Shown here: piece by piece, positions 484 to 33,605 of the stretch
Layout of the letters: every line of letters starts with the position of its first letter
How positions within the stretch are numbered: position 1 is the first letter of the stretch
Source of the DNA: a virus
Reading direction: 5' to 3' (one strand)
DNA: 33,746 bases
IMG/VR virus record: IMGVR_UViG_3300001102_000004
Coordinates: 1 to 33,746 of that record
The notes under the pieces: generated by a model
What the model was told of the DNA's origin: nothing
Seen by the model: only the letters and a program-made list of their open reading frames with translations
The model's database searches: none
Translations under genes and position numbers: made by a program

Positions 484-537
484 CTATCGAACTGAAAAGA
501 TAAGCCTATGGCGACTTAAAGAGTTTAAAGTTAATAA

Positions 538-7102: not shown

Positions 7103-7133
7103 CAAACATAAACAAATATTTCGAATACACAAA
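7103..7133 (-). promoter_or_regulatory. Canonical Bacteroidota sigma-A promoter: TTTG-N19-TATGTTTG
   Basis: The minus strand reads TTTGtgtattcgaaatatttgttTATGTTTG. Both boxes are perfect, the spacer is 19 nt, and it lies in a 99-nt gap. Confidence 0.65.
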
Positions 7134-11839: not shown

Positions 11840-11870
11840 TTATTTAAAAATTATAAAATTGTTACTATTA

Positions 11871-11897
11871 CAAATTTAAGCTATTATTTAATACAAA
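11871..11897 (-). promoter_or_regulatory. Promoter-like element, N15 class: TTTG-N15-TAAATTTG, then TAATAGTAA, 31 nt before the ATG
   Basis: Its 18-nt core TTAAATTTGTAATAGTAA (11862-11879) is identical to 22612-22629. Confidence 0.55.
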
Positions 11898-14800
11898 TTA
11901 TGGAACAAACAAAGTACACTCCCCAAAATCATTACTGCATTCGTTTATAGCTGTTAATTTTAACGTTAAAGACGTTTGAAAGTCTGGAAAGTCATTTATT
12001 AAATTAATAAAATCTATAGTTATAACTCCTCCCGTAGTGTTTAGCGGTGTTGTTGTTATTCCAAAATAAGGCTGTAAATCAGTCCAAGTATAAGATACAC
12101 CAGGTAAGTCTGTTCCTGGTACGGTTACTGGGTTAGCTCCCGAATTAAAATTAGATCCAAATACTATAACTCCTAAATCATCTAAAACCTCTATGTTGTA
12201 GTTTGTCGGAGTGTCTCCTAAATTACCCCAGTTAAAATCAGCGAAATTAGGGCCTTGTCCGCTAGCTACACATCCAGTAGATAACTCTACCTCTTCACAT
12301 ACGTTTCCTATCTCCAAATCTCCACAGTCAGTATTTAAACATATAGATAAATAAGATGTGTTTAAAGCTGTTAAAAAACCTCCAGGAAATTTAGCACTTA
12401 AAGCTGGGTCGTTGTTTATACCTGTAACATCAAAAACTAATTTACCAAAAAAGGAGATATTAGTAGTTAATTCATTAATATAAGGTTGTATATCTGACCA
12501 TAAACATAATGCTCCTGGGTTCTGACTTGCTGGGTTTTCTAAAACAGGGTTTTGCCATTTATTAAAAGTTGCATCTATAACTAAATCTCCTACGCTGTTT
12601 TTTATTTTAAATCTCAAAGGCTCATCTATAACCTGGTTAAAAGAGTAGCATTGAGAATAACCTTGGTTAGAATTACTTAAAGTTAAAACCTCGTTAATTA
12701 AACCGCCCTCAGGTGTAGTACATTCTGAAAAACCTAAATCTAAATACGAACATTCGTTACCGTAGTGCAATAAAGCTACAGAATTTACTAAAGGCTGTGT
12801 GAAAAATTCGCCTTGAAATTTAGGGCCTAAAACAGGGTCGTTGTTTATACCGTCTCTGTCAAATAATATAATTCCACTCGGCCCAACTAAAGTGGTTGTA
12901 GGTGTTATAATAAAGGGTTGTAAGTCTGACCATTGACAAAGCGCGTTAGGGTTTTCTGATACTGGGTTGTCGTTTTTCGGGTCGTCTCCAATATTAAAAA
13001 AAGCATTAAAAACTAACTCCTGGTTAGAGTTTACAAAGCTAAATCCTATAGGGTTTTCTACATTATTTAAGTTGTAAACTAAATCTATTGTAGGTGATAC
13101 AATGGAGTCTAAATTAAAGTTAAAATTTCCTGTTACTGGCACACAAGCTATCTCTCCTTTTTTAGTTCCTAGCCTCGCACTTATTTTATACTCGTTTGGC
13201 TTACTTATATTTGATCCGTTTATAACAGTTTCTAAACAAAAAACTCCTGGCGACGGGTTAGTTAAAACTGAATTACTTTTGAATATATTTAAAATGTTTT
13301 CTTTTTTGCTGCTGTTTTCTTCTATTGTTGTTTTTCCTATTGAGTTTTTAGGCTCTACTCTAAACATTCCCCAAACATCGTTAATAGTAGCCTGGCTATT
13401 TAAGTTTGTAAAAGTTACTTTTATATTAGTGTCCTCTCCGTCAAATAAAACACCGTCAACAATTAAACCATCATTGTCAGTTATAACATATTCTTTAGTC
13501 CATTCCTCCGAATCTTCATATCCGCAAACGTTAAACTCAGGACTATAAAAACTGTAAGGTGTAACTATACCGTCTGCGTCTGAAATTTCAAAACATATAA
13601 CAGTCCTTATACCATATCCGTTTTTTAAGTTATAGTTAGATACATCCTGGTTTAATCCGTTGTTTGGTTCGTTGTTGTCATAAAAAACCGTGTTAGCTCC
13701 TGGTAAAGCGTTCCATTCCTGCCAACATAACTGTATAGGAGTACATAAAGTATATCCAAATAAACTACGCTCTCCTGTAAATCCATTTGTAGTTAAAATG
13801 TTATTGTTAAAACTATCTGACGATGGTATTAACAAAGACTCAGAAAAATTAACCTCTAATTGTTGAGTGTTAAGTCCATTTTCAGGCACTATAGTTTGAC
13901 CTGTCAATGGAATATTTTTAGTTGTAAAAACAAACTCGTCTCCTGTGTTAGGGTTGTAAGCTAATGTTTTAACCTGTATACTTTCTATTAACGCTCCTTT
14001 TTCTAGGTCCAAACAAAAATCCGTACATTTTAAAATATTATCCTCTATAAAACCTGAATATGTATCACACCCATCACCCTCTAAGTCGTCGCAATGTCCG
14101 TAAAACTTCATTTTTTTAACCTGTATTAAACCAGGTACACAAGCATCATAAATAAAGCTTTTAACATCTGCTAAAATCATTGTTTTATCACTTGTGGCTG
14201 TAGGACCTCCATTTGAAACGTCAAAAGCTAACATATAGCAATCATCGCCATTTATATTTTTTGGAAAGTTTACATTAATGCATATCTCTAATGTCTCATT
14301 GTCAATAAGATTGTAACTATAGTTGTTAAAAACTCCATTTTCTCCAGTAGTGGATGAGCTGCCTATATCCTCTATGCCGCAATCATAACAAAAATTTTCA
14401 TTAAAACAAGTAGTAGTGTTGCTGTATTCGTCTACAGTAGGCAACAAAGATATGTAGGCTCCAAATGATGCCCCAGCACTAAAGCTACCTGACGCGCTTT
14501 TTATTATAGCTCTAACCTTTGTATCCTCGTTAGCTAATAAGCATTCTACCTGGTCTCCTACTTCATTTAAATACTCTATAGTTTCTACAGAATACTCTGT
14601 GGTATTGTTTAAAGATTGATTAAACCAAACTACATTGCCTTGTTGGCTTACATGTTCGCATATTTTAGCGCAATTAGGGTCCGTTAGTTTATTTCTAAAC
14701 TCCGCACTAAACACATAATTTATAGAGTTTGTTCCGTTAAACAAGTCAGGAGGTATTCCCATTTGTAAATTTTCTTTTTCTCCGTCCTGATAGTAAGGTG

Positions 14801-15461
14801 TTACGGTAAACTCGTGGCATATTTTAAAATTCTGTATCTCCCCTTTAGAACCTCCAGTTTGCAGTTTCTCTACTGTTGTTTTTCCAGTTTGCCAACTACA
14901 AATAGGTCCAACCTTGTTTAGTGTTATTTCCCCTCCAGCCTGCACTCCCGATGTTGAGTATGCTTGCTCGTTTCCGTCAATCCAAAAATAGTTAGATGGT
15001 GCCCCATTTTCTATTAATCCGAATTTGTATACTAATCCGTCTAGTGGTGTAGTTCCTATTATTTTTAAAAAAGAAGTGTCTTTATAACTTCCGCTAGGAA
15101 CTATAACGTTATCTACTACTGCGTCAATAACCATGTTTTCAGAATTTACAGAGCTAACTGTATATGGTCCTGTTACACCTGAGTTTGTTTGTAAGCAAAC
15201 CTCGTCACCTATACAAAAATCGTCGTCTAAAAAGCTCCCAAAATTCCTACTTATAAAAGTTTTACCTGCGTTTACATTTACAGTAAAACATAAAGTAGAT
15301 GTACTTATAGAATCCCAAAAAATAGCTACTTCAAACTCAGCCTTTACCCTGTTCATAGGTGACGCTAATATATGGCTATTAAAGTCTGTTAAATTTTCTG
15401 TAAAATCTTTACCGTTTATATGGTCCAGGTAAAATTTACTGCTCGTTATTATACAACTCAT
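11898..15461 (-). CDS. Large tail fibre / host-specificity protein
   Basis: 1187-aa ORF downstream of the tape measure and the 562-aa tail protein. It is cysteine-rich and has three tandem C-terminal domain repeats. Confidence 0.7.
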   Translation of the reverse strand: MSCIITSSKFYLDHINGKDFTENLTDFNSHILASPMNRVKAEFEVAIFWDSISTSTLCFTVNVNAGKTFISRNFGSFLDDDFCIGDEVCLQTNSGVTGPYTVSSVNSENMVIDAVVDNVIVPSGSYKDTSFLKIIGTTPLDGLVYKFGLIENGAPSNYFWIDGNEQAYSTSGVQAGGEITLNKVGPICSWQTGKTTVEKLQTGGSKGEIQNFKICHEFTVTPYYQDGEKENLQMGIPPDLFNGTNSINYVFSAEFRNKLTDPNCAKICEHVSQQGNVVWFNQSLNNTTEYSVETIEYLNEVGDQVECLLANEDTKVRAIIKSASGSFSAGASFGAYISLLPTVDEYSNTTTCFNENFCYDCGIEDIGSSSTTGENGVFNNYSYNLIDNETLEICINVNFPKNINGDDCYMLAFDVSNGGPTATSDKTMILADVKSFIYDACVPGLIQVKKMKFYGHCDDLEGDGCDTYSGFIEDNILKCTDFCLDLEKGALIESIQVKTLAYNPNTGDEFVFTTKNIPLTGQTIVPENGLNTQQLEVNFSESLLIPSSDSFNNNILTTNGFTGERSLFGYTLCTPIQLCWQEWNALPGANTVFYDNNEPNNGLNQDVSNYNLKNGYGIRTVICFEISDADGIVTPYSFYSPEFNVCGYEDSEEWTKEYVITDNDGLIVDGVLFDGEDTNIKVTFTNLNSQATINDVWGMFRVEPKNSIGKTTIEENSSKKENILNIFKSNSVLTNPSPGVFCLETVINGSNISKPNEYKISARLGTKKGEIACVPVTGNFNFNLDSIVSPTIDLVYNLNNVENPIGFSFVNSNQELVFNAFFNIGDDPKNDNPVSENPNALCQWSDLQPFIITPTTTLVGPSGIILFDRDGINNDPVLGPKFQGEFFTQPLVNSVALLHYGNECSYLDLGFSECTTPEGGLINEVLTLSNSNQGYSQCYSFNQVIDEPLRFKIKNSVGDLVIDATFNKWQNPVLENPASQNPGALCLWSDIQPYINELTTNISFFGKLVFDVTGINNDPALSAKFPGGFLTALNTSYLSICLNTDCGDLEIGNVCEEVELSTGCVASGQGPNFADFNWGNLGDTPTNYNIEVLDDLGVIVFGSNFNSGANPVTVPGTDLPGVSYTWTDLQPYFGITTTPLNTTGGVITIDFINLINDFPDFQTSLTLKLTAINECSNDFGECTLFVP
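11901..13073 (-). repeat. Three tandem, diverged domain repeats of roughly 110-145 aa at the fibre C-terminus
   Basis: Recurring blocks NP..ENP...ALC.WSD(L/I)QP(F/Y)I and GINNDP. At the DNA level gggtcgttgtttatacc occurs twice, near 12408 and near 12836. Confidence 0.7.
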
Positions 15462-17363: not shown

Positions 17364-20300
17364 TTATCTAAGTTTACGTTTAATTTTAGTTATAGTTTTA
17401 TCGCTTACTATAACTTGTGTTATTATATCTCTAAGTTGGTCGTACTCATAGCCCACCTGTGGTATGTCTATTTTTGAAACGGCAGTAGTTAAAGCGTTTG
17501 TTATCCCAACCTCGTCAATAGTAACAGAATTTAAATTACTCATGTTTCCTTTAGGGCTTACTACTCCAGTATCAAAAAACCCTTTAACATATTTGTTTTT
17601 AAAATCTGACATGCTAGCACCTTTTAAACCTAAGTCCTTTGTTGTTGCAGCATCTATTACAAACTCCTTACCATGTGTAACACCTGCAATATCGTTAACT
17701 CCTACGTCTCCAGTATAACCTCCCGTTTTAAATCCGTTAAGAGAATTAATAAAAGCTAATAAAGCTGTAATACCTCCACTAGTATTACCTAAAGACTCTA
17801 AAGGGGTTTGATCGTTTTCTAAGCCGTTAATATAACTTTTTATAGCTGCGGTAGTAAGCTCTGTTATTCTCGCTCTACGCTCTTGTTTTTGCTTTTCCCT
17901 TTGCAGTTCTGCTATTTTTTTATTTTCAAACTCTAGCCTGTCTAAGTCGTCTGTAGTTTGACTATCTCCTAAAGACTCTAATTTACCTATAGCTGTTTCT
18001 CTTTGTTTAATTTCGTTGTCTACTTCGGCTATTCTTTGTTTAGCTAGTTCTTGTTGTGACTTATTAAACTCCTCTGTAGATTTTCCTACCCTATCGTAAA
18101 ACTGTTTTTGTTTTTCCTCCCTATCTAAAAGGTCCTTTTGTAACTGGTCGTTTAAAGCTTTTGCTGTGTCTATTATAACCTGGTTTGTTTTTTCGTTTTC
18201 TTCCTCTACTCCAGCTAAAACATCCGCTGCCTGCTCAGGTAACCCATCACCGTCTATAGTTAAAAGCTCTACCTGTTCTCTACCTTTACCGTCCAGTATG
18301 TCCTGTAGTCTTTTAATTTCCTCTTTTAATGTTTCAGCCTCAGAGGTTAAAGATTTAAACTTTTCTCCTAGAGCGTCGTTAGGATCGTTTAAAGCTAACT
18401 CCCTTTCCTTTCCTACCTCTTGTAATTTCTTTTTTAACTGCTCTAGCCTAGATAATCTTTTGTCGTTTGCGCTACCTCCTGATCCTTGTTTATCCGCTTC
18501 GTCTTGCGCTTTTTTCTGTTCAGCTAATATTTTAGCTTGTAATTTTTTCTCGTCCTCTATTGCTTCTTTTTCCCTGTCGGCCCTTTTCTTTTTTACAGCA
18601 TTATTAAAAGCGTCTCCTACGTCAGAGCCTGCGGTTTTAAAAGTTTCTTTTAAGTCGTCTACAGCTTTTCCTGCAGCGTCAAAATCAAAAGTTAAAGCGT
18701 TTCCAATAACTCTCCCTAAATTTTTAGTAAACTCAACTACCTGTCTGCCTATTTCAAAAATAGCCTCTTTTGTGGCCAAAAACAAAACTGGTATATCTGT
18801 TATAAAACCTCCTATAGATTTAAAACCTCTGCCTATCGCGGCTAAAACGTTTTGTAGTCTAGGACTTTCAGCTATATAGTCTCTTGTAACTTTTACTAAA
18901 CCAGTAAAAGCATCTACAATAAAGCTAATTACAGTTAAAGTAAATTTTAATGGTATTTGCAAAAACTCAAAAACCTTTGTAAGAACACCTACCGAGTCTG
19001 TCGCTTCGTCCGCTTCATCACCAAATAGGCCCAACGCTTCAAACAGCCCTACAAAAGAATCTCTAACCTCTGTTATAAATGGTTTTAAAGTGTCTATTGC
19101 TGCGTCAAAAGCTATAATTATATCGCTTATAAAATCAATAACTGGAGCTAAAAACTCTACCAGGCCATTGTCACCAGCCAACAAAGCGTCGAAAGTGTTT
19201 TTTAAACGCTGCCATGATGCGGCAAATGTCCTCGTATTTTGCTCTGCTTGTTTCTGAGCTACCCCGTTCTCATCTACTTGCTCTGTAAGCTCCCCAAAAC
19301 GGTCTATATTTTCAACTAAAACACTTGCCGCTTCTTTATTTTCTCTACCAAAAACCTTAGTTAAAGCTATTGAGTTTCCTTGTATTTTAGATAGCTCTGT
19401 TAACCTTTCTTTTAATGTTAGGTTTTTGTCAGCTAACACGTCTGTATTTACTCCTGCGGCCTGTAATTGAGCTACAGCCTCTTTAGGTAAAGCCTCTGCA
19501 GTAGACAATATAGAGAATACGTTTCTTAATTTAGTTCCTGCCTCGGCTCCCTCTAAACCTTTTTCGGCTAATAACTCTATGGCTCCTACTGACTCCTGTA
19601 GTTTTATATTTGCGCCTGACGCAGAAACACCGAATTTAACTAATGCCTCTGTAATTGCTGGAATTTCCGCAGCTCCTGCCTGTGCTCCTGCAGCAAGAAT
19701 ATCTGTAACCTTTGCTGCTTCGCTTGCGTCTTTACCGTACTGGTTTAAAACCTTTGTTAACGATCCAACGGAGCTGGATAAATCGTCTCCACTAGCTTTA
19801 CTTAATAATATGGCCTGCTTTGTAACGTCAGCTAAAGCGTCTCTGTTTTCTAATAGCTCAGGCTTTGCACTACCTACTAATTTAAAGGCCTCTACTGTAT
19901 CTTTTAATGATGTGCTTAATGTACGATCCTGTGCTATTTGTTTTGCTTGCTCTGCAAAAAATCCTAATTCCTCTCCTTGTATTCCTAGTATAGAACCTAA
20001 AGATGCTAAGGATGTTTGAAACTCAGACTGTACGGCTATAGCTCTTTTAGTTATCGCTGTTATCCCTGCTAATGCTCCAGCCGCTAAACCTACAGGGCCA
20101 AGCACTAAATTTTTAATAGCTCCTCCAACACCTCCCCAGGCACTACCGTAGTTTCCTACATTCCTTTGATATTGTCCAGCGTTAGCGTCAATTTTCTTTA
20201 AATTACCATCTAACCCTCCTATTTGTTTCTGTAGGTCCTTTGCGTTTTTGCTAGCTATACCCTCAGACGCTGCAACATCTTTGTATCTTTTCCTTAATTG

Positions 20301-20708
20301 GTTTAGCTCTATTGATAGTTTTTCGTAAGCTGTAGTAGTCTCGCTTTGTAACTTTGCCTCCTCTCTATTTATTTTGTTTTTTCTGTTTATTTCAACCCTT
20401 AAAGCTGCTACCTCTTTTGCTTCTTTACCTGTTAGATTTGTTAGCTTAGATTGTAGTTTTTCTTTTGTTCTTAAAATCTTATCCTGTTCTGATAATATTT
20501 TATTTGTTTTCTGAGACTCTTTATTAAAATCGTTTATACCTTTTGCGCTACTTAAATCAAAAGCATTTATTTTTTTTGCAGTAGCTTTTAATAAACTATT
20601 GTATTGTTGCTCTAACTGCTCTAAAACTTTTAAAAAATCTGCTGCATTTTGCGCTTCACCTCCAAATAAATTGGACTCTAATATATCCTCCTTTTTAATC
20701 TTTGCCAT
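17364..20708 (-). CDS. Tail tape measure protein
   Basis: 1114 aa with long coiled-coil regions, glycine-rich hydrophobic segments and a C-terminal GGYTGDVGVNDIAGVTHGKEFVI motif. Its position after the chaperone-slot ORFs also fits. Confidence 0.85.
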   Translation of the reverse strand: MAKIKKEDILESNLFGGEAQNAADFLKVLEQLEQQYNSLLKATAKKINAFDLSSAKGINDFNKESQKTNKILSEQDKILRTKEKLQSKLTNLTGKEAKEVAALRVEINRKNKINREEAKLQSETTTAYEKLSIELNQLRKRYKDVAASEGIASKNAKDLQKQIGGLDGNLKKIDANAGQYQRNVGNYGSAWGGVGGAIKNLVLGPVGLAAGALAGITAITKRAIAVQSEFQTSLASLGSILGIQGEELGFFAEQAKQIAQDRTLSTSLKDTVEAFKLVGSAKPELLENRDALADVTKQAILLSKASGDDLSSSVGSLTKVLNQYGKDASEAAKVTDILAAGAQAGAAEIPAITEALVKFGVSASGANIKLQESVGAIELLAEKGLEGAEAGTKLRNVFSILSTAEALPKEAVAQLQAAGVNTDVLADKNLTLKERLTELSKIQGNSIALTKVFGRENKEAASVLVENIDRFGELTEQVDENGVAQKQAEQNTRTFAASWQRLKNTFDALLAGDNGLVEFLAPVIDFISDIIIAFDAAIDTLKPFITEVRDSFVGLFEALGLFGDEADEATDSVGVLTKVFEFLQIPLKFTLTVISFIVDAFTGLVKVTRDYIAESPRLQNVLAAIGRGFKSIGGFITDIPVLFLATKEAIFEIGRQVVEFTKNLGRVIGNALTFDFDAAGKAVDDLKETFKTAGSDVGDAFNNAVKKKRADREKEAIEDEKKLQAKILAEQKKAQDEADKQGSGGSANDKRLSRLEQLKKKLQEVGKERELALNDPNDALGEKFKSLTSEAETLKEEIKRLQDILDGKGREQVELLTIDGDGLPEQAADVLAGVEEENEKTNQVIIDTAKALNDQLQKDLLDREEKQKQFYDRVGKSTEEFNKSQQELAKQRIAEVDNEIKQRETAIGKLESLGDSQTTDDLDRLEFENKKIAELQREKQKQERRARITELTTAAIKSYINGLENDQTPLESLGNTSGGITALLAFINSLNGFKTGGYTGDVGVNDIAGVTHGKEFVIDAATTKDLGLKGASMSDFKNKYVKGFFDTGVVSPKGNMSNLNSVTIDEVGITNALTTAVSKIDIPQVGYEYDQLRDIITQVIVSDKTITKIKRKLR

Positions 20709-21225
20709 TGTAGTTGTTCATTTCTTCTATTATCTTATAATAGTAAGTTGCTAATACTTCATCCTCTTTTAAGTTATACCCCATGAATTTACAAGCGTGT
20801 ATAAAACCTTTTTTTTTGTCTACCTTAATTCTAGTAAGGTCCTTAATTGCATCCTCGCAATCCTCTATAGCGTTCACGTGATACCTTTCACCAGTAGTAG
20901 CTAATTTAATTCTAGCTATAACTAGTTTTTTACTTAGCCTTAGTATTTTTTCGTATTCGTCAGATATTCCGCACTGGTCTATATATCCCTGGAAAACTTC
21001 AAGCCATGCGTTTAACAGTTGTTTCTCTGTTGGTTTTCCACTTATAACTAAGTACTCTATACTTTCCTCTAAAATTAACCAATTTTTTAAAGGTATATTT
21101 TCCCAAGTGTATAACTTAGTAGCCTCATTTTCGCTTACATTTAATTTAGGCTCCTCTAATATATTCTCTGATTTTCTTTTGTATCTCCTCGATAAAAACC
21201 CTTTTAAGTATCTCCAAACTGTCAT
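20695..21225 (-). CDS. Hypothetical protein in the tail assembly chaperone position
   Basis: 176-aa ORF directly upstream of the tape measure. It overlaps the preceding ORF by 80 nt, in the +1 frame. Confidence 0.55.
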   Translation of the reverse strand: MTVWRYLKGFLSRRYKRKSENILEEPKLNVSENEATKLYTWENIPLKNWLILEESIEYLVISGKPTEKQLLNAWLEVFQGYIDQCGISDEYEKILRLSKKLVIARIKLATTGERYHVNAIEDCEDAIKDLTRIKVDKKKGFIHACKFMGYNLKEDEVLATYYYKIIEEMNNYNGKD

Positions 21226-21613
21226 CTGTTAACCCAAGTATAAAGCGTGAAGCTATAACCTCTAAATCTGTAAAAGTATTATCTATAGTAGACTCCTTTA
21301 AAGTTTCTGCTGTTATTTCTGCATCGCCATTGTTTAAAACTGTAACTCTAAACGAGTTGTAAAATTCCCCTGTATCAAATAAATTAAAAGGGGTTCCTGC
21401 TTTTTTTCTTCCTCTAGTTAAAATCTCAGTAGCTACCGAGTAATTAGGCAAAGGAAAATTTTTACTGTCTATACCCTCTTTGAATAATTGCTTTTTAGTG
21501 TTAAGCTCTATTATCAACTTTTTTGTTCTCTCTAAATTAAAAAAAGCCACAGCCAATTTAGTATCGTTAAGATCGTTTATAAAAAAGTTTAATATTTTTT
21601 TTAGCTTATCCAT
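21146..21613 (-). CDS. Hypothetical tail-module protein (chaperone slot; DTGEFYNSF resembles HK97 gp10-like proteins)
   Basis: The start is moved to MDKLKK at 21613. The track extension to 21652 runs through a terminator hairpin. Confidence 0.55.
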   Translation of the reverse strand: MDKLKKILNFFINDLNDTKLAVAFFNLERTKKLIIELNTKKQLFKEGIDSKNFPLPNYSVATEILTRGRKKAGTPFNLFDTGEFYNSFRVTVLNNGDAEITAETLKESTIDNTFTDLEVIASRFILGLTDDSLEILKRVFIEEIQKKIREYIRGA

Positions 21614-21616
21614 AAT

Positions 21617-21648
21617 AAAAAAAAGGGGGTGACAAAAGCCAACCCCCC
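21617..21648 (-). terminator. Strong rho-independent terminator/attenuator after the major tail protein gene
   Basis: The minus strand reads GGGGGGTtggcttttgtcACCCCC followed by T8. Confidence 0.7.
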
Positions 21649-21675
21649 TCAACCAACAAATTTATTTTATTAGTA

Positions 21676-22587
21676 TTAAGGTGTAGGTAGAGTTACAGTA
21701 GTTGCACCTCCAGCGTCATAACCTTTTTTCAGTAAAGCATCCCAGTTAATAGTAACTACGTCTCCTGCATTCCCTCCAGGGATAGATATACTGTACAATC
21801 CGTCTACTTCTGTAATGGTAGGGGTTACAGCGTTACCTGCTAAAGTAACTACTAAATCTGTAGCTACTAATCCTTTGTATAAAAACTGCTTAATAGGTTT
21901 CCTTAATTTAAAGTCAAAACCTGAAACTTGCAATGTACTAACGTCAATGTCTACAGTTAAATCATTTAAAGGACAAGCACCTACCACGTCTGCGTCGTGT
22001 GTTCCTCCAAATATATATCCTACTGTACCAGTTGATTTGGTAGCCAACTCATATTTAACCTCTACTTTGTCACATGTGGAACCATCACCTTTAATGAATT
22101 TAGCGCGCACATTAGTAACTCTATATGGGTAAAGTTTATCATTGCTACACAAACCTCTAATAGTTCCGCATGCGAAAACATCATACATGTTTAAACCTCC
22201 GCAAGCTGCTAAAGCGTTAATGTTATCTCTCATTAATTCAGCTACCCCGTTTTTTTCAAAAGGAATAACAAACATTCTTTTTTCTTTTCCTGGTCGAACA
22301 AAACACTCCGAGCCGTCGTTAAACGTTTCGTAAACATCGTCCTCGTCCTCAGAAATAATATTTTTAATTTCAGGAAAAGGTCGCCATCTGCTAGGTAAAT
22401 TTACCGCGCATAAAAATTGATTTAAGCATGTCTGATCGAAAGACTTTGTTAAATCAATATGGTTCCTTTCTCCATTTTCGTTTAATTCAGGAACTAGTAT
22501 ACGTCCGTAGTCTTTTCCAACCTCGGGATAGTCGCATAACGGTAGTCCTAAGTTTCTAACCTTTGGGTCACATACACATTTTGACAT
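21676..22587 (-). CDS. Major tail protein with a C-terminal Ig-like extension
   Basis: 303 aa. It has its own promoter-like element and terminator, lies upstream of the chaperone-slot ORFs and the tape measure, and has a beta-rich C-terminus. Confidence 0.6.
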   Translation of the reverse strand: MSKCVCDPKVRNLGLPLCDYPEVGKDYGRILVPELNENGERNHIDLTKSFDQTCLNQFLCAVNLPSRWRPFPEIKNIISEDEDDVYETFNDGSECFVRPGKEKRMFVIPFEKNGVAELMRDNINALAACGGLNMYDVFACGTIRGLCSNDKLYPYRVTNVRAKFIKGDGSTCDKVEVKYELATKSTGTVGYIFGGTHDADVVGACPLNDLTVDIDVSTLQVSGFDFKLRKPIKQFLYKGLVATDLVVTLAGNAVTPTITEVDGLYSISIPGGNAGDVVTINWDALLKKGYDAGGATTVTLPTP

Positions 22588-22620
22588 TGTTATTTTTTTT
22601 AGTTTATATTATTACTATTA

Positions 22621-22647
22621 CAAATTTAACACTTATTACAACACAAA
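22621..22647 (-). promoter_or_regulatory. Promoter-like element, N15 class: TTTG-N15-TAAATTTG, then TAATAGTAA, 33 nt before the ATG
   Basis: The TAA of the box is the stop codon of the upstream gene. Its 18-nt core is identical to 11862-11879. Confidence 0.55.
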
Positions 22648-23369
22648 TTTTTTGTATTAGTGTTTTTAGTCGTGGTAAATCTAATTTCTAAATGATAGGC
22701 TCCTAAAGGCGCATTAAAAAACCATTCGGGGCACTCCTCTTTTTGGTTGTATTTAGCGAAAGCTGGGTAGTCCTTTGACCAGTATTCCTTAACCTCGTTA
22801 ACGTCTTTTGACTTTTTAAGTTTTTCTATAAAAGAATACATTAGATTATACATTGGCTGCAGATCGCATATATGGTCCTTTGTAACCGTATCTTTAAAAT
22901 TTAATGGCTGAATAAAAAACAGATTAATTTTAACGTCTCTGTCGTAGCATGCTAAATCGTCTACCTGAGTATATGCCCTTACATTTCCTGACATATATAC
23001 CATAGGGTATTTTTTACAGGATTTAATTTGATCTATTTCGTTAGATACGTAATGATGTTCTCCGCTAATAAACATAGGTGCGTCTATGCAGAATTTTAAA
23101 CAGTCTGCAGTTTCGTTTACCTCACCATTAACGTCTATGTATTCATTGTAGCTAAACCCTTTTACCTCGTAATCGTTCCCGTTAATTTGAAACTTTTTAC
23201 CACAGCAATTAAAGTACTTCCAGCAATCGTTAAGGTGTCCAGTATTACAAACGTAAAGCCTAGAAAAGTCGTTTTCTTGATCGTATTCGATTTTATTTAT
23301 AACTCCCTCATGCGATAAGCAGCCTACTAAAGGCTCTATTATTTTCGTTATGGTTTTTGGTGGTATCAT
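22626..23369 (-). CDS. Hypothetical cysteine-rich virion-module protein
   Basis: 247-aa ORF that ends ...NLCCNKC. Confidence 0.6.
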   Translation of the reverse strand: MIPPKTITKIIEPLVGCLSHEGVINKIEYDQENDFSRLYVCNTGHLNDCWKYFNCCGKKFQINGNDYEVKGFSYNEYIDVNGEVNETADCLKFCIDAPMFISGEHHYVSNEIDQIKSCKKYPMVYMSGNVRAYTQVDDLACYDRDVKINLFFIQPLNFKDTVTKDHICDLQPMYNLMYSFIEKLKKSKDVNEVKEYWSKDYPAFAKYNQKEECPEWFFNAPLGAYHLEIRFTTTKNTNTKNLCCNKC

Positions 23370-23842: not shown

Positions 23843-26071
23843 TTAAATTCCGCCCTGGTGCCAAGTTATAAAACCCTCTCCTGCTGCTGATGTTGTTACA
23901 ACTCTAACCCCTGCTAACTCAGGCACAAATATTTTAGAGCCTATATTAGCTCCGTCTCCTGAAAGCTCTATACCGTTAGTTGTACTTGGTGCTGTTCCGT
24001 CTAAAGTCATTCTGACATTTCCTGCTCCGTTATCGTCTATGGCCGTAATCCAACCTGGACCAGTAGCAGCTATACCTACAGGAGTTGTACCTATAAATCT
24101 AGTTATACCTGCGTTTGTTGGTACTGCTGCTATTCTTATAGCTTCTACTACCTCCGCCTGGGTTAATCCTGTGTTTGATACTGGTTCCTCCTGTATATTG
24201 TTTCCCGATGGCTGTATAGCGTCTTTATTGAATTTGTCGCAGAAAATATTATCCTCTGTAATGTCTATTACTTGTGTTTTATCTGAGTTGTAGTTAACTC
24301 CGTTCTCACACCTCCAGCCTTTTATTTCGTTTATTACTGGTCTATTTTGAAAAATCCACTCATCAGGTATATCTCTAATTACTCCGCTAACTGGGTCAAC
24401 ATATCTAAGTCTTAAACTTCCGTTCGCGCTAAAATCTTGTACATAAAATCTTACTCTATAAATTCCCTGAGGCAAAACCCCTAAGGAGTTAGAGTTAAAA
24501 TTAGCGTAAGGAAAAACCCACTTTTCAGTCATTTCATTGCCGCAATTTTCACTTATCCAAATTGATCCAGTTTCCGCAGTTCCTACGTTCTCTATTAAAT
24601 CTGCATCAAAAGGCATCATTAAATAAAAATCTAACTGGGCCTGATCTTGTCCAAAAACATTGGTTGTAGTAGCTCCGTTTATAACCTGGGCTACATCCTC
24701 TGTGTTTTGGTGCATAGGGTAACCCTCCAGGTCTGTTAAGCTAAAAGAAACTGTATACGGGTCTGATGATGAAAAACCGTTTACTGCTCCTGCTCCGTCA
24801 TTCCATAACTTCTCGTTAGCTCCGTTTGCCCCCGTAACCTCGTAATAAGTTTGCCCTATACAGGTAACTCTTTTACATTCTTTAACAACCTCTCCAGGGT
24901 TTAAGCTGTAAGCTGTTATTGATCCGTTTTCCTGGTGCTGACTTAAAACTACAGTCTCGCTTATTAGGCTTCCTGTGTTACTGTAACTCCTTTCCTTGTA
25001 CTGTCTAACAGTAGGTAGTACTTCGTCGCCGTTAGAGTCAAATACGCAAAGCCCTGTGTATTCCCAGTCGTTTCTAACTTGGTTATTTATAGCGTCCTCT
25101 ATGGTTTGAAGTTCGCTTACTATTGGTGAAGTTAAAGCCGTTATAGTTGCAGCGTCTAAAGATACTTCCCCGTCTACTGTTATAGTAGTAGCTGGGTCTG
25201 TTAACAACGTAATTAAATCTCCAAAGTTATCTACATTAACATCTAACCCGTCTAAAGCTGACGCTATAGCATTGGCTAACGCTGTGTTGTCAAATGTAAC
25301 CGTTACTGGTTGGTTAACCGTTACGGTACCAGTTACATTTATAGGTTGGTTGTTTATGTCTACGTTTAAATCTATACTCTCTAAATCTGATAAAGTTCCT
25401 GGAGAAAGTGATACGCTTAAATCTCCGTTAGTTACGTTAACGTCTATTGGCTCTCCTAATAGGTTTACATCTATACTAGGATTGTCTATAGTGGCCGTTA
25501 CATTTAAACCGTCTAAAGCTGTTGATATTTCGTTGGCTAATTCCTGTAGGTCCCCTGTAGATAGGTCCGCATTAACCGTCCATGTTCCAGACTGTACCGA
25601 GTTTACAGTAATACCAGCGTCTAATTTATCGCACACATCCTGTATGGATTGTGTTATTAAAACTGTTTGCGCTTGTATCTCTCCTGCTATTTGGTTCCCT
25701 AGGTTTGTAAATAAAGCTGAAAATGCCGCGTTTGGATTTACTGTTATCTCATTGTTTATAGATATTCCGTTATCTACAATGTCGCATATTTTTTGCTCCA
25801 ATAAAGTTAAGTCTGATCCTCCCGAAATACAGCCTGTGCATTCTGTGTACCATTCACAAAACTCCTCTTCGCTTGTAAATAAAGTTGAGCTTGTTATGTC
25901 TGTAAATGGAAAATCGTTATAACATTTATTCCCGTCTACGTAAATATCATAAAAACCCTCAGAGGCTCCTTTGTCTATTTTAACTTCACATAAAGGATGC
26001 GTATTGCACGTGTCTTTATCTGTATCTGTAATTACTAAGTAATTGTTTTTCTTTTCTAACTCTAATGCCAT
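23843..26071 (-). CDS. Large unknown virion-module protein (possible head/neck fibre)
   Basis: 742-aa ORF between the capsid and tail genes. It has repetitive (I/L)D(V/L)NV and ALDGL(N/D)V segments and a beta-rich C-terminus. Confidence 0.65.
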   Translation of the reverse strand: MALELEKKNNYLVITDTDKDTCNTHPLCEVKIDKGASEGFYDIYVDGNKCYNDFPFTDITSSTLFTSEEEFCEWYTECTGCISGGSDLTLLEQKICDIVDNGISINNEITVNPNAAFSALFTNLGNQIAGEIQAQTVLITQSIQDVCDKLDAGITVNSVQSGTWTVNADLSTGDLQELANEISTALDGLNVTATIDNPSIDVNLLGEPIDVNVTNGDLSVSLSPGTLSDLESIDLNVDINNQPINVTGTVTVNQPVTVTFDNTALANAIASALDGLDVNVDNFGDLITLLTDPATTITVDGEVSLDAATITALTSPIVSELQTIEDAINNQVRNDWEYTGLCVFDSNGDEVLPTVRQYKERSYSNTGSLISETVVLSQHQENGSITAYSLNPGEVVKECKRVTCIGQTYYEVTGANGANEKLWNDGAGAVNGFSSSDPYTVSFSLTDLEGYPMHQNTEDVAQVINGATTTNVFGQDQAQLDFYLMMPFDADLIENVGTAETGSIWISENCGNEMTEKWVFPYANFNSNSLGVLPQGIYRVRFYVQDFSANGSLRLRYVDPVSGVIRDIPDEWIFQNRPVINEIKGWRCENGVNYNSDKTQVIDITEDNIFCDKFNKDAIQPSGNNIQEEPVSNTGLTQAEVVEAIRIAAVPTNAGITRFIGTTPVGIAATGPGWITAIDDNGAGNVRMTLDGTAPSTTNGIELSGDGANIGSKIFVPELAGVRVVTTSAAGEGFITWHQGGI

Positions 26072-27027: not shown

Positions 27028-27050
27028 TTATAAAGGGGGAATTAACCCCC
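27028..27050 (-). terminator. Hairpin (GGGGG-6 nt-CCCCC) after the major capsid gene; weak or partial terminator
   Basis: The minus strand reads GGGGGttaattCCCCC followed by TTTATAAAAAA. Confidence 0.45.
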
Positions 27051-27069
27051 TTATTTTGTTAGTTTTTAA

Positions 27070-28293
27070 TTATTTTTCAATATCCGTTAGTACGTTATCG
27101 AACGTGTCAAACTCAAAACAAGCCTGGTGATTACACGCAATATAGAATAAAAATCTACTCTCGGCTACAAACGTTTCCACGTTATGAATAAACTGATCGT
27201 TAATTAATCCTCTACGTATAGAAAACTGCTTGTATTGAGCTAGGGTAGCTTTTTTAAAGTCTCCTAAAATATATTCGTTGTCAGCTAAACCGTAATTAAT
27301 AACTACCTCGATACCGTTAATCCTTAAAGTTCCACCTGTAAAGGTAATACCTGGATGAGTTTGGTATGTTCCATCCGCGTTTTTAGTAGACAAAAGTTTG
27401 TAGTACTTAGCACATGATACCATTACGTTATCAGGCATACAACCTTTGCAATTAGCTGAAACTATAGCAGCTTCTAAAGCATCCGCGCAATTAGGGTCTA
27501 CAATGCAACCGCTATAAGCTGGGTTTAAGTAAGTACCTGCAACATCTTTAATTTCCTCAGTAACATAAGCGTTTAACTTATCGTCATGCAAACGTCTGAA
27601 AAGCTCGTTAATCCAAGATAATACACCTGGTACATCCTCGAAAAACTCCTCACATATAACTAGATGAGCTGCTAACTTCTTAGCCTCTGCACTTTGTCTT
27701 TTTACTGAAAAATCAACGCATGGCTTTAACTCACACTCTCCAACGCAATCAAACTCCCCTGAGTCAGCTACATACTCCATCCAGTAAACATGCTTTGCAG
27801 AAACTGTTATGCGGTTTAATTTGTCTAAAATTCGAGTGTTAACTCTAACCTGGTCCACTAAACCTGGAACAAATAAAGTTTGGCCGTAACCAATACCTGT
27901 ACCTCCGTCGTCGTAAGAATTGTCCGAGCTTAATACTGCAGACTTATCTATTACTAACTCGGCATCGTACTTAGAAGTACTGTTACTTTTCCATGCCTCA
28001 ATAGGTGTAATAGTAGTTCCGTCTGCAACATATCCCTTGTCCGAGAAAGTTCTGTTGTCAGACTTAGATACTACTAACTCCTCTAATGTTAGAGTCTTTG
28101 TAGTGTTTTCCTCTTTAGCTTCTAACGCTGTAACTTTAGTTTCTAAAGCAGCATAAGAAGTGTTAAAAGAATCCATTTTACTTGTTAGCGCAGCATTCTC
28201 TAAAACCTGAGCGTCTAACTTAGCTGTTAAAGCAGTTGTAGCTAACGCTACTGCGTCGCTAATGCTTTTAGCTATTTGTTCTTCTTGTGTCAT
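27070..28293 (-). CDS. Major capsid protein (HK97-fold type) with an N-terminal coiled-coil delta/scaffold domain
   Basis: 407 aa, immediately after the prohead protease. The N-terminal 60 aa or so are Ala/Leu-rich coiled-coil. A hairpin terminator follows. Confidence 0.75.
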   Translation of the reverse strand: MTQEEQIAKSISDAVALATTALTAKLDAQVLENAALTSKMDSFNTSYAALETKVTALEAKEENTTKTLTLEELVVSKSDNRTFSDKGYVADGTTITPIEAWKSNSTSKYDAELVIDKSAVLSSDNSYDDGGTGIGYGQTLFVPGLVDQVRVNTRILDKLNRITVSAKHVYWMEYVADSGEFDCVGECELKPCVDFSVKRQSAEAKKLAAHLVICEEFFEDVPGVLSWINELFRRLHDDKLNAYVTEEIKDVAGTYLNPAYSGCIVDPNCADALEAAIVSANCKGCMPDNVMVSCAKYYKLLSTKNADGTYQTHPGITFTGGTLRINGIEVVINYGLADNEYILGDFKKATLAQYKQFSIRRGLINDQFIHNVETFVAESRFLFYIACNHQACFEFDTFDNVLTDIEK

Positions 28294-29086
28294 TTGTTTT
28301 GTTTTTAATAATTTCTATTACTTTGTTTAAATCAATTTGAGTGCCTGCTGGCGGCTCGGTTTTTTGAGTGTCTGCTGACGGCTCAATATCTTGTAGAGTA
28401 GGTGTTAGCTCGTTACTGCCCTGTAGGACCGCGCTAACCTCTATTAACTTTGCTTCATATATCGCGAAAAAATAACCTCTCTCTATAGCTCTGTCTTTGT
28501 TTCCTATAGAGTCTATATGTTTATCCCATTCTGCTTTTTCCTGCGCGTATTCCTTACCATCTGAGTTTATAGCCATCTTTAAGCTAACATAGTACATTCC
28601 TACGCTATGCTGGTTAATAGCTCCTTTGTTGTACTGGTTAAATATAAAAGGGTTGTAACTTTCCTTTATATCGCTCTCTATAATAAGGCTAACTGTATCT
28701 CCGTCTTTATCTACCCCCAATGTTCTCCAGGGAATAGCTCGCTCCTCAATATCCTGTATGTCTCCAACCTGAGCAACTAATTTAAAATCGTGGTCGTGTA
28801 AATGGAAAACCCTATCCTTTCGGTCCTTTATAGACTTACTAAAAACCTTGTCCAAATGTACATCGTCGTGCGAATCCATCCAGTTATAAGTGTTAGCGAC
28901 TATAGTAGTTAACCCAGGTGTTAGATCGTTTTTATTTACAGACTTATTTACTCCTCCACTCTCGATGTTTGATATTATACCGTCAGTAAATTTAATAGCA
29001 GATTTTTTAAAATCCATTATTTTTGTTTTCTCAGCCTTTAAATACTGGAATAACTCCGCTTTATTTTCAAAACTTGGTATAATCAT
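28268..29086 (-). CDS. Prohead maturation protease (HK97 / S78-like)
   Basis: 272 aa between portal and capsid. It has HDDVH and HLHDHD histidine clusters, and the LIEVSAVLQGSNELT block resembles the E.S.V..PAN motif. Confidence 0.65.
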   Translation of the reverse strand: MIIPSFENKAELFQYLKAEKTKIMDFKKSAIKFTDGIISNIESGGVNKSVNKNDLTPGLTTIVANTYNWMDSHDDVHLDKVFSKSIKDRKDRVFHLHDHDFKLVAQVGDIQDIEERAIPWRTLGVDKDGDTVSLIIESDIKESYNPFIFNQYNKGAINQHSVGMYYVSLKMAINSDGKEYAQEKAEWDKHIDSIGNKDRAIERGYFFAIYEAKLIEVSAVLQGSNELTPTLQDIEPSADTQKTEPPAGTQIDLNKVIEIIKNKTNDTRRTNS

Positions 29087-29175
29087 TTCTTTACTATTTT
29101 AGCTTCATTAGCTTTTTTAATCTTTGCAGAAAACTTTTTTTTAGCCTCCTCTAAAGTTGGTTTAGTTTTTTTCAT
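29083..29175 (-). CDS. Possible 30-aa lysine-rich peptide between portal and protease
   Basis: Hand translation gives MKKTKPTLEEAKKKFSAKIKKANEAKIVKK. The ATG is 4 nt after the portal stop, and its stop forms an ATGA overlap with the protease start. Confidence 0.35.
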   Translation of the reverse strand: MKKTKPTLEEAKKKFSAKIKKANEAKIVKK

Positions 29176-29179
29176 AACA

Positions 29180-30379
29180 TTACAAAGTTAAGTATTTATT
29201 TAATACGTTTTTCTTCTCCTCTTGTGTTAATAAATCGCCTGCTGCATTTAGAGCGTCAGCAACCATTTTTAACGTCTTAACGTCTTTTATTTTTTCGTCC
29301 TTAAATATTTTTAAATCAAATTCAGCTACTATTTTCTCGTCGTTTCCATCGAAAAAATGATTACTAAGTATGTTTGCTATTCTGTCTGCAGTTGGTATTA
29401 TTGAATCCTCGTAAGCTTGCTTTATAGCGTTCTTTTTATTGTTAAACGTGCTGGCTTTTTCCTGGCTAAATAGATCAGAGGATAAACCATAAGCGTCAAT
29501 AACCTTTTTTTCTGACATGCTCATTTGCTCCAATAGCTGTAGACTTTTAACGTCCTCTGTTATCTTTGTCCACTTCATCGCCTTATTAGTAAGTATTATG
29601 GACTGCTTACCATGTTTTAACCCATGTGTCTCAGCATGTTTTTTGTAAAGCTCCTTTTTTTCAGGCTCAGAAAGGCTAACAATACCTCCGCTTTGAGACT
29701 CAGGAGAAAGTATACCTCTAGCCCCCCTTTGTTGTATAAGTACGTTTATGCTCTCTAGCGAGCACATAATATTGCTAAGATGGTATTTTAAAGACGGTAG
29801 TTTTGACTGTGGTTTAATTGAGTTTTGTTGTACGCTGTCCTTTCCAAAAATAACCTGCTGCACTTTATATGTGTCCTTGCCTCCGTTAGATGATTTTACC
29901 TGGAAATTCTTAATTATACCCGATAACTCCGACTGGTCGTTGTATTTACCTGTAGGTACTATTTCGGTGTGAGCTAATGATAAAAAACTCATTGATTTAG
30001 GAGCGTTTACAAAATCACTTTTTGGAGCGTAAATTAAAAAGCCCCCGTATAAATCCCAGTTTTGAATTAGCATTTTATTAAACTCATATCCTGATAAGTA
30101 CCCATGAGGATTGTTTAGCTTCTTTATAATGTCGCTTTTATCTACTACCTGGTCTCCTTTGTAATGTACCCATTTTAAATTACAAAACATTTCTGCCCTT
30201 TTATCTAGGACCATTCTTAGTATAGGGTTTGTTTCGTATAAGTGGTAGGCATTTCCGTAAGTGCAATCTATTAAAAACGGGGTTACGTCTCCTATAGACT
30301 GAATACCAAAGTCATTATTTATAGATTGCAATATATCTCTACCTTTGTCTACTCTTTTAAATATGTCTAATAATCCCAT
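29180..30379 (-). CDS. Portal protein
   Basis: 399 aa, between the large terminase and the protease. Confidence 0.75.
   Translation of the reverse strand: MGLLDIFKRVDKGRDILQSINNDFGIQSIGDVTPFLIDCTYGNAYHLYETNPILRMVLDKRAEMFCNLKWVHYKGDQVVDKSDIIKKLNNPHGYLSGYEFNKMLIQNWDLYGGFLIYAPKSDFVNAPKSMSFLSLAHTEIVPTGKYNDQSELSGIIKNFQVKSSNGGKDTYKVQQVIFGKDSVQQNSIKPQSKLPSLKYHLSNIMCSLESINVLIQQRGARGILSPESQSGGIVSLSEPEKKELYKKHAETHGLKHGKQSIILTNKAMKWTKITEDVKSLQLLEQMSMSEKKVIDAYGLSSDLFSQEKASTFNNKKNAIKQAYEDSIIPTADRIANILSNHFFDGNDEKIVAEFDLKIFKDEKIKDVKTLKMVADALNAAGDLLTQEEKKNVLNKYLTL
29183..29209 (-). promoter_or_regulatory. Degenerate member of the N15 element family: AACG-N15-TAACTTTG, 7 nt before an ATG
   Basis: The spacer tattaaataaatact closely matches the spacer at 11879-11893 (tattaaataatagct). 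Confidence 0.3.
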
Positions 30380-30383
30380 ACTA

Positions 30384-30410
30384 CAAATTTAACCTTTTTA
30401 TAAATACAAA
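30384..30410 (-). promoter_or_regulatory. Promoter-like element, N15 class: TTTG-N15-TAAATTTG, only 4 nt before the portal ATG
   Basis: The minus strand reads TTTGtatttataaaaaggtTAAATTTGtagtATG. The spacer contains the terminase stop codon. Confidence 0.45.
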
Positions 30411-31621
30411 TGTTGGTGATAATTACCCACGATCATATCACATGCCAAAGCTACCGTATCGGGTGCGTCGTCATTTTCGTTTTTCTTTTTATCTATGTTG
30501 AAGCTTAAAAACTCTTTCATAAATTTATCGTAGTCGCTTCCTACCTCGTAGTCCTCTCTAAAATAAAAGTACTGTTTTATGTTATATGATGCGTTCATTA
30601 TCCTAGTCTCCTTATTTGTTTTGGACCATTTACCAAACATCGAGCAATTTATTTTATTTTGCAGCATATTCATAAATAATTTACCAGCTCCGTTAGTTTC
30701 TATCCAGGCCTCCCTGGTGTTATTCCTGTTGATAATATCCGCGCATTGGTCCAGGGTGTAATTATTATCTGTAGCCTTGCTCATTAAAACATCTGTAATA
30801 TAAACGTCTCTACCTATCATTTTTATTATTAATGCGCATGTTGAATCCTTACCTCCTGTGGCAACATCTATAGCACAGTAAATATGCTCTACTGAGTCGT
30901 CGTTAATATCACTTAATTTAAATCTGTTTAGGTCGTTAAAACTAAATACTGCTCCCTCCTGGTCCTCTATAAATTCTGCGTAAATCTCCTGCCTAGCTGC
31001 TTGCTCAGATATTTTACCTATCTCTCGCTCTAGTTTTTTAATCGTGTCATTGTCTAGGAACGGGTTGCAGTAGCTGTTTTTTTGGGTTCCTGAATACTCA
31101 GGGTTGCCGTTTAAAACTTCTTTCCACATTAAATAAAATCTGTGATCCTCTCCAGTTTTAGTCCTCTTACCTTTAGGTGTGCCAAAGGCTATTAGCTGAC
31201 TATCTTTATAGTCCATCATCATTGGCAGTATAGCATTAGTATACAGATAATCCTTTTTTAGAATTATACCAGCCTCGTTTAAATATATCTTTTGATAACC
31301 AAACCCCTCTATGTTTTCGGGTTTATCTGCACTCCTAAAGTCTATAAAGCCCTCCCCTATTTTTAATATTTTCTTTTGGCTATTCCATTCGTGCTCCAGC
31401 TCCTGCTCCTCTATAAATGGCAAAAAATAACGCTCGTAATACCTGTCTATATTTGAGTAAATAGTATCTACCCATAGTACAGCCTTTCCGTCTGCGCAAT
31501 CTATAACAGCGCATATGGCAGCTCCTTTGGTTTTTCCTGTACGTCTACCAGCAACTACTAATACAAATTTAGACTTTTGGGATAAAAACCATTTATTTTG
31601 CCATCTAATTAATTTTATCAT
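30398..31621 (-). CDS. terL: Terminase large subunit
   Basis: Walker A VVAGRRTGKTKG, Walker B-like KIYLNEAG, and C-terminal nuclease acidic motifs (AIDVATGGKD, WIETNGAG, DDAPD). Confidence 0.85.
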   Translation of the reverse strand: MIKLIRWQNKWFLSQKSKFVLVVAGRRTGKTKGAAICAVIDCADGKAVLWVDTIYSNIDRYYERYFLPFIEEQELEHEWNSQKKILKIGEGFIDFRSADKPENIEGFGYQKIYLNEAGIILKKDYLYTNAILPMMMDYKDSQLIAFGTPKGKRTKTGEDHRFYLMWKEVLNGNPEYSGTQKNSYCNPFLDNDTIKKLEREIGKISEQAARQEIYAEFIEDQEGAVFSFNDLNRFKLSDINDDSVEHIYCAIDVATGGKDSTCALIIKMIGRDVYITDVLMSKATDNNYTLDQCADIINRNNTREAWIETNGAGKLFMNMLQNKINCSMFGKWSKTNKETRIMNASYNIKQYFYFREDYEVGSDYDKFMKEFLSFNIDKKKNENDDAPDTVALACDMIVGNYHQHLYL

Positions 31622-33575: not shown

Positions 33576-33605
33576 CAAAGATAACAAAAAAAGCTCCTAT
33601 ACAAA
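33576..33605 (-). promoter_or_regulatory. Host-type promoter: TTTG-N18-TATCTTTG
   Basis: The minus strand reads TTTGtataggagctttttttgtTATCTTTGaataga. The -33 box lies in the loop of the preceding terminator. Confidence 0.5.

Follow-up and report, generated by a model that had tools for sequence, protein, structure and literature searches.

Gene content of the phage genome

The window, i.e. the whole stretch of DNA analysed in this study (33,746 nt, with a G+C content of 34%), ends in a 49-nt direct repeat (33698-33746) of its positions 1-49, and it is therefore a circular assembly, of which 33,697 nt are unique. All of its long ORFs are carried by the minus strand. Family searches identified on this strand genes for (i) the large terminase (30398-31621), (ii) the portal protein (29180-30379), (iii) the major capsid protein (27070-28293), (iv) a pair of tail chaperones (21146-21652 and 20695-21225), (v) the tape measure protein (17364-20708), (vi) an FN3-domain protein (fibre; 9983-11839), (vii) an endolysin (7849-8334), (viii) an O-like/DnaD-like replication protein (4128-4970) and (ix) RusA (2823-3155). 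The labels portal, large terminase, capsid and FN3 domain, which had been given in the initial annotation, were thus confirmed. The 303-aa product of the gene at 21676-22587 (minus strand) had been called the major tail protein; its position in the gene order agrees with this label, and it is kept here as putative, given that the protein matches no family and has no homologue in IMG/VR or in a set of 5.8 billion proteins.

A comparison of 12 kb of the window with GenBank phages revealed no near-identical match. The nearest cultured relatives, with approximately 25% protein identity, are phages of Flavobacterium, Cellulophaga, Olleya, Leeuwenhoekiella and Tenacibaculum, and relatives of the portal protein are encoded on a contig binned in a Flavobacterium MAG as well as in an Allomuricauda genome. 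Because of these relationships, a Flavobacteriia-type host is likely for this phage.

Five promoter-like elements in the virion gene module

Inspection of the minus (coding) strand confirmed the position and sequence of five promoter-like elements, which the initial annotation had described as a family with a fixed 15-nt spacer. Three of them share the form TTTG-N15-TAAATTTG and precede the FN3 fibre gene (11871-11897), the putative major tail protein gene (22621-22647) and the portal gene (30384-30410). The fourth (TTTG-N15-TATCTTTA; 429-455) is found before an ORF at the circular junction, and the fifth (AACG-N15-TAACTTTG; 29183-29209) at the end of the portal gene. The description therefore applies in full to three clean TTTG-N15 sites, while one of the other two lacks TTTG and the other has its TTTG on the T-run of a terminator. 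Each of the five is located on the coding strand upstream of a gene, at most 33 nt from the start codon, and the family occupies the few intergenic gaps of the structural module or the ends of its genes.

The putative portal promoter consists of TTTG (30407-30410) and the box TAAATTTG (30384-30391), which is followed by tagt and the ATG at 30379; its TTTG and the first 9 nt of the spacer are at the same time the last codons and the stop codon of the large terminase gene. In the putative promoter at the portal gene end, which belongs to the direct repeat D1, AACG stands in place of TTTG, and the box TAACTTTG (29183-29190) is immediately followed by the portal stop codon TAA. This site would direct transcription of a 30-aa ORF (29083-29175), a scaffold/protease-like gene (28268-29086) and the capsid gene. 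The unit would be ended by a terminator-like hairpin located after the capsid gene (27030-27052, minus strand; GGGGG-loop-CCCCC, -12.4 kcal/mol, with a weak T-run).

The putative tail-protein promoter contains TTTG at 22644-22647 and TAAATTTG at 22621-22628, with a predicted start at about 22616 and the ATG at 22587. The TAA of its box is the stop codon of the gene at 22626-23369. Together with an intrinsic terminator situated after the putative tail-protein gene (21620-21650, minus strand; an interrupted stem of 9 + 3 bp, a 4-nt loop and T8, -18.2 kcal/mol), it brackets a single gene in a promoter-gene-terminator unit. The putative fibre promoter (TTTG at 11894-11897, box TAAATTTG at 11871-11878) is wholly intergenic, its TTTG adjoining the stop codon of the gene at 11898-15461. 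The fibre and tail sites are situated 31 and 33 nt from their ATGs (at 11839 and 22587, respectively) and share, as had been reported, an identical 18-mer, TTAAATTTGTAATAGTAA (11862-11879 and 22612-22629).

The weakest member is the site of the junction ORF, with TTTG at 452-455, the box TATCTTTA at 429-436, cagt and the ATG at 424. Its TTTG coincides with the final bases of the T-run that belongs to an intrinsic terminator (458-485, minus strand; 11-bp stem, -14.8 kcal/mol), and its box ends in A, not G. The ORF had been annotated as a junction-spanning secreted protein gene. It does begin with a signal-peptide-like sequence, but an in-frame TGA (371-373) interrupts it after 17 codons. From the ATG at 424 it encodes MRKLIPILSMLMLFAFM, then comes the TGA, and beyond it the frame continues without a stop for about 140 codons, crossing the circular junction to position 33639 (minus strand). 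The TGA stands where the Cys of a lipoprotein could be, and it could be a sequencing error, the mark of a pseudogene or a recoded stop codon.

We also evaluated the family against the background of the genome. A loose form of the N15 pattern gave 6 matches on both strands versus 1.33 expected, and at least 6 were reached in none of 100 shuffled sequences, which places the N15 arrangement above background. For the minus strand alone, at least four N15 matches were obtained in 0 of 1000 Markov simulations (p of about 0.017 after correction for 20 spacers). This count is weak by itself, because the antisense strand reaches five matches at N17 by chance. These plus-strand TTTG-N17-TAnnTTT[AG] matches (2460-2488, 2803-2831, 5984-6012, 6673-6701 and 24825-24853) are probably coincidental on a T-rich strand; antisense promoters are also conceivable.

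Stronger evidence comes from the placement and coherence of the sites. TTTG is present at exactly N15 in three of the six TAAATTTG boxes of the coding strand, compared with about 0.02 expected by arithmetic from base composition. All of the minus-strand N15 sites lie at most 40 nt upstream of a start codon, a placement shared by 6% of the genome. When matrices built from four sites were used to find the fifth, each left-out site ranked 4-6 among 67,394 positions (429-455: 7.0 bits, rank 6), and an unbiased repeat search returned the family as the top direct repeats of the genome, D1 and D9. Repeat search, matrix ranks and the related phages described below agree on a coherent, conserved promoter-like family before late (virion) genes, as the initial annotation had proposed. 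A possible sixth, weaker member (7888-7919, minus strand; 13 bits) is situated in the lysis region, upstream of a 72-aa gene (7643-7861); its box TAAATTTG (7893-7900) has no upstream TTTG.

Predicted -7 boxes, transcription starts and leaderless mRNAs

Bayley et al. in 2000 and Chen et al. in 2007 reportedly described the promoters of the primary sigma factor of Bacteroidota (sigma-A, or sigma-ABfr) as composed of a -33 element, TTTG, and a -7 element, TAnnTTTG, for which the latter authors are said to give an optimum spacing of 19 bp. The -7 element (TAnnTTTG, or TAHHTTTG) is present in the phage family as TAAATTTG in three sites and TAACTTTG in one, so that four of the five boxes have the consensus form TA(A)(A/C)TTTG. 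The variant box TATCTTTA of the fifth site (429-455) is also that of the mapped ogt1 promoter of F. psychrophilum. A scan of the window for promoters of the sigma-70 type, which is irrelevant for this type of host, showed no enrichment.

In F. johnsoniae, the -7 box extends from -12 to -5, with transcription beginning 4-5 nt downstream (PMC6847099). As a reference sample we used 23 TSS-mapped sigma-A promoters of F. psychrophilum (Table S2 of PMC9723704), in 16 of which the start is the fifth nucleotide after the box. Leaders predicted on this basis are 26 nt long at the fibre site and 28 nt at the tail-protein site, i.e. within the range of the reported median leader lengths (24-33 nt). At the portal (TAAATTTG-tagt-ATG) and 429-455 (TATCTTTA-cagt-ATG) sites, the predicted start is the A of the ATG; since exactly 4 nt separate the box from the ATG, neither the portal gene nor the junction ORF would have a leader on its mRNA. 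For the 30-aa ORF at 29083-29175, which begins 7 nt after the box of the portal-end site, a leader of about 3 nt is predicted. The starts predicted for the five sites are 11866, 22616, 30379, about 29178 and 424. At three sites, therefore, the start codon is at the predicted start or at most 3 nt from it, and the mRNAs would be leaderless or nearly so.

The same layout of -7 box, 4 nt and ATG occurs in the F. psychrophilum genes holB (TATATTTG-caat-ATG) and ogt1 (TATCTTTA-aatt-ATG), for which the mapped 5'UTR is 0 (Table S2, PMC9723704); the ogt1 box is identical to that at 429-436. These are host genes with mapped starts, whereas the phage starts are predicted. Another reading, in which the upstream TTTG would close a tandem second -7 box, was ruled out by the preceding bases, as they contain no TA at the right place.

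The five elements are very probably real promoters. We infer their promoter activity, transcription starts and sigma-A dependence from sequence, and their late timing from gene content alone.

The upstream element and its spacing

In four of the sites the upstream TTTG is separated from the box by 15 nt, and the fifth lacks TTG; a TTTG or TTG placed about 19 nt (18-21 nt) upstream, as in the host-type -33 arrangement, is thus not present in the family. This does not exclude the elements from the sigma-A promoters, since the -33 element has been reported as dispensable or undetectable in flavobacteria: it "could not be identified" in F. johnsoniae (PMC6847099), and in F. psychrophilum it was found in only one sub-class of promoters, where its presence "is dispensable" (PMC9723704, supplementary information). 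In B. thetaiotaomicron the -33 box is variably spaced (PMC7366714).

The departure from the host-type spacing that had been noted in the initial annotation is evident in the F. psychrophilum sample, where TTG occurs at N18-21 in five of the 23 promoters and at N15 in none, and most contain no TTG at all. These promoters are T-rich from -36 to -32 and A-rich from -31 to -28, with G at -28 in one of 23; G occupies -28 in all five phage sites. The three clean sites contain the heptamer TTTGT(A/G)T at -31 to -25. The portal-end site does not contain it, and the TTTG of 429-455 is explained by the terminator T-run. This heptamer, the sequence of the phage's own -33-type element, is placed 3-4 bp nearer the box, and it can be regarded as a real, lineage-specific conserved element.

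Only 11 copies of TTTGT(A/G)T occur on the coding strand of the phage. Three are those of the N15 elements, three are the TTTG of the -7 box itself, and two are placed at N18 or N19 in two further promoter candidates, which we used for comparison. One of these (33576-33605, minus strand; TTTGTAT-N18-TATCTTTG) follows a terminator and heads the module of small genes upstream of the terminase genes, and the other (7103-7133, minus strand; TTTGTGT-N19-TATGTTTG) lies in a 99-nt gap heading the module with the HTH-like and replication genes. The canonical N18/N19 spacing thus heads non-structural (early-region) modules, and the N15 spacing is found within the virion module. One heptamer at two spacings is the pattern that best fits the earlier idea of a distinct promoter class.

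By the spacing limits of sigma-70-type promoters, a TTTG at N15 is 4 bp too close to the box, beyond the usual contact of region 4. Any function it has would therefore be that of a site near -30 or of a deliberate mis-spacing, if it has one at all; TTTGTRT could modulate promoter strength, serve as a handle for regulation or be a relic. A search of IMG/VR for TTTG-N11..23-TTAAATTTGTAAT gave, among the matches listed, a flat histogram of spacer lengths in unrelated AT-rich viruses.

Conservation in related phages

The closest relatives of the phage are two Logan contigs, L001 (52% identity of the terminase and 41% of the portal protein) and L166 (55% and 40%, respectively). A matrix derived from the window was applied to two sets of contigs, the first portal-related (about 0.6 Mb) and the second terminase-related (97 kb). 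The two best matches were the orthologous positions upstream of the portal gene and at its end, in L001 in the first scan and in L166 in the second, and the other related contigs (about 0.7 Mb) contained no matches to the matrix.

The putative portal promoter of the window has TTTG, the 15-nt spacer TATTTATAAAAAGGT, the box TAAATTTG and tagt-ATG. Its counterpart in L001 reads ATTG, TATTTATAATTTATC (15 nt), TATTTTTG and taat-ATG, and that in L166 TTTG, TATGTATAAAATTAA (15 nt), TACTTTTG and taat-ATG. The 6 nt between the terminase stop codon and the portal box are wholly different in sequence in the three phages, yet constant in length. A box is likewise situated at the very end of the portal gene in all three (in L166, TAAATTTG followed by taat and ATG); this portal-end member has no TTTG in any of them, yet it is equally conserved. 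The motif scan in related phages that had been suggested therefore finds the N15 arrangement at the portal gene of two relatives, in a narrow lineage. The family, the positions of its members and their conservation in L001 and L166 are observed directly, as is the difference from the promoters of the host genus.

Scans of IMG/VR and of metagenome and genome collections with a portal profile revealed only distant relatives (25-33% identity), none of which has the full motif. A -7 box usually precedes the portal gene in these relatives, where TTG either is absent or occurs at N13, N14 or N20, and there is no box before the tail-protein gene at the position that it has in the window. A putative promoter after the terminase gene is thus widespread in this group of phages, and the N15 arrangement appears confined to a narrow lineage.

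The end of the terminase gene deserves separate mention. The C-terminal Leu-Tyr is encoded as TTG-TAT in five phages (window, 30401-30412; L001, 4612-4620; L166, 2562-2573; L167; L168); the residue before it is His (CAY) in four of them and Lys (AAA) in L001, and the preceding 15 residues have diverged. TTG is a rare Leu codon, accounting for 8.6% in the window and 9-17% across the phages of this comparison. The conserved TTG-TAT points to an unexplained constraint at the nucleotide level. As an argument for the N15 TTG of the portal promoter it is weakened by L167 and L168: both keep CAY-TTG-TAT with the box 37-38 nt away, and the portal-site TTG may therefore be held for another reason.

Probable mode of recognition and alternative explanations

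It is probable that the elements represent a known type of Bacteroidota promoter family, with a lineage-specific upstream element at a non-canonical spacing. They would be internal promoters of the virion gene module of a Flavobacteriia-type siphovirus, at which the host RNA polymerase holoenzyme would read a near-consensus sigma-A -7 element (extended consensus TTAAATTTGTAAT, -13 to -1). This would add transcription before the portal gene, the scaffold-capsid unit, the tail-tube gene and the fibre gene, with intrinsic terminators closing the scaffold-capsid and tail-tube units; promoter-gene-terminator units are the usual way to boost abundant virion proteins.

The phage elements share with the sigma-A promoters of Bacteroidota (PMC6847099; PMC9723704; PMC7366714) the -7 box, its distance from the start codon, AT-rich spacers and an optional upstream TTTG. 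They differ in the distance of this TTTG from the box, 15 nt instead of about 19 (18-21), and in an extended, unusually uniform box (TTAAATTTGTAAT). A phage promoter read by host polymerase without a phage factor has a possible parallel in P_BfP1E6 of a Bacteroides phage, a likeness proposed here and one that involves a different host order; according to bioRxiv 10.1101/2025.03.18.644028, which cites Whitaker et al. (2017), it gives strong constitutive expression in uninfected cells.

The suggestion that the recognition mechanism would be new is not upheld. The block that dominates and is best conserved has the form of a canonical -7 box for sigma-A, and this, together with the reported dispensability of the -33 box in flavobacteria, makes a new mechanism unnecessary; the strong activity of the Bacteroides phage promoter in uninfected cells points the same way. 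What weighs against the preferred host-type reading is the exact N15 TTTG of three sites, which no promoter of the host-genus sample has and which unaided recognition by sigma-A leaves unexplained. Strict late timing also fits poorly, since -7 boxes of the consensus form would be active as soon as infection begins, and some of the conservation may be driven by proteins, because parts of four sites overlap coding sequence.

The N15 spacing can also be read as the mark of a separately regulated class, in which TTTGTRT near -30 would be read by an unrecognised phage protein or a remodelled sigma-A or, alternatively, in which mis-spacing would keep the promoters weak until a phage factor acts. The architecture would parallel that of the middle promoters of T4, which combine a good sigma-70 -10 element with a MotA box at -30 replacing the -35 element, and which are read through sigma appropriation by AsiA and MotA. 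The layout of the phage elements is comparable, with a good proximal element, a conserved box near -30 and no normally spaced distal element; the sequence of the box is unrelated. The exact N15 of the three clean sites, the TTG or TTTG at N15 in the portal promoters of L001 and L166, the N18/N19 copies in two non-structural candidates (two spacing classes in one genome), the rarity of G at -28 in host-genus promoters and the restriction to a narrow lineage, with no matrix matches in about 0.7 Mb of other related contigs, all argue in this direction. Nevertheless, we regard a separately regulated class as unlikely. The earlier statement that no sigma factor or activator gene is recognisable held in a similarity-based scan of all ORFs with Pfam and PHROGs, which detected no homologue of MotA or AsiA, no analogous activator or co-activator family and no sigma domain. 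A late promoter dependent on a phage sigma factor, of the T4 gp55 or SPO1 gp34 type, is likewise not indicated, as the proximal element is the host consensus. The only lead to a regulator is a weak HTH-repressor-like match (E = 4e-4) of the 70-aa product of 6385-6597. Nothing convincing was found as a regulator common to the three motif-carrying phages, which have no small protein in common: a 91-aa protein encoded beside the terminase gene is found in L166 only, and a PAP2-like protein is otherwise all that is shared. In addition, the equally conserved portal-end promoter does without TTTG in three phages, consensus -7 boxes should need no help, and the sample is limited to 3-4 sites. The more specific proposal, that N15 TTTGTRT marks a temporally distinct class switched on by an unrecognised small phage protein acting at or beside sigma-A at about -30, is unlikely. 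Of the distinct phage promoter class suggested in the initial annotation, the coherent family with its two spacings stands, while the host-type -7 boxes and the portal-end member without TTTG speak against it.

Inherited baggage is a further explanation for the upstream TTTG: an ancestral promoter cassette would have been copied around the genome, with a TTTG that has no function of its own. Similarity does extend over about 40 nt and includes the spacer (76% and 71% identity for D1, 79% for D9), the fibre and tail sites share their 18-mer, the portal-site TTG belongs to terminase codons conserved even where no box stands at N15, and the TTTG of 429-455 is a terminator T-run. This is hard to reconcile with an intact TTTGT in the three clean sites beside spacers whose identity has fallen to about 50-60%, with the block-like conservation (two blocks at a fixed distance), or with the 6-nt length before the portal box, kept across three genomes whose proteins are only 40-55% identical, and we consider it distinctly improbable. 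It is very improbable that the elements are not promoters at all and owe their similarity to coding constraint where genes end or to some other signal in DNA or RNA. Four of the five sites do extend into the 3' end of the preceding gene, as such a constraint would have it, but the fibre site is wholly intergenic, the boxes fit a consensus established by experiment and are correctly spaced from start codons, the rare Leu codon TTG (8.6%) is used inside the boxes, and searches of the window for Rfam families and tRNAs found none.

We judge the elements to be, as far as their sequences tell, internal late promoters of the ordinary host type that carry in addition a lineage-specific upstream element. 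In the literature searched, there was no account of promoters or gene timing for Flavobacteriia phages, nor of such a promoter class in Bacteroidota phages. The phage offers a compact, testable set of putative promoters, in which the -7 boxes are strong matches to the consensus and one upstream heptamer occurs in two spacing classes in a single genome. Leaderless mRNAs are predicted for the portal gene and junction ORF, and a near-leaderless mRNA for the conserved micro-ORF. If the short spacing is regulatory, it would show how a small phage in which no regulator is recognisable times its late genes, in a phylum whose sigma factor is unusual, and activator-dependent reading, if true, would be the first sigma-appropriation-like or activator-dependent late class described for a Bacteroidota phage. 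If it is not, the elements would still have a use in Flavobacterium genetics, as short promoter parts of high strength, and as marks in the annotation of related viral contigs.

Additional features of the phage group

A lysine-rich ORF (30-54 aa) is always present between the portal and scaffold/protease genes in this group of phages (window, 29083-29175; L166, 3805-3969; L167, 5555-5686; L168, 4349-4468; L169, 8643-8753; L170, 10230-10352; L171, 12466-12582). In the window and L166 it starts at most 7 nt from the -7 box, and its mRNA would be leaderless or nearly so. The PAP2-like membrane protein, an unusual phage cargo, is encoded only in the three phages with an N15 portal promoter (window, 1141-1977; L001, 1682-2695; L166, 11-598).

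The overlap of the tail-chaperone ORFs contains a GGGTTTT slippery heptamer (about 21195-21201, minus strand), a candidate site of programmed frameshifting. Finally, three tandem 18-nt units similar to ATTAACAGTTACATTATC are located at 4530-4591, within the replication initiator gene (4128-4970); they look iteron-like and may mark an origin of replication.
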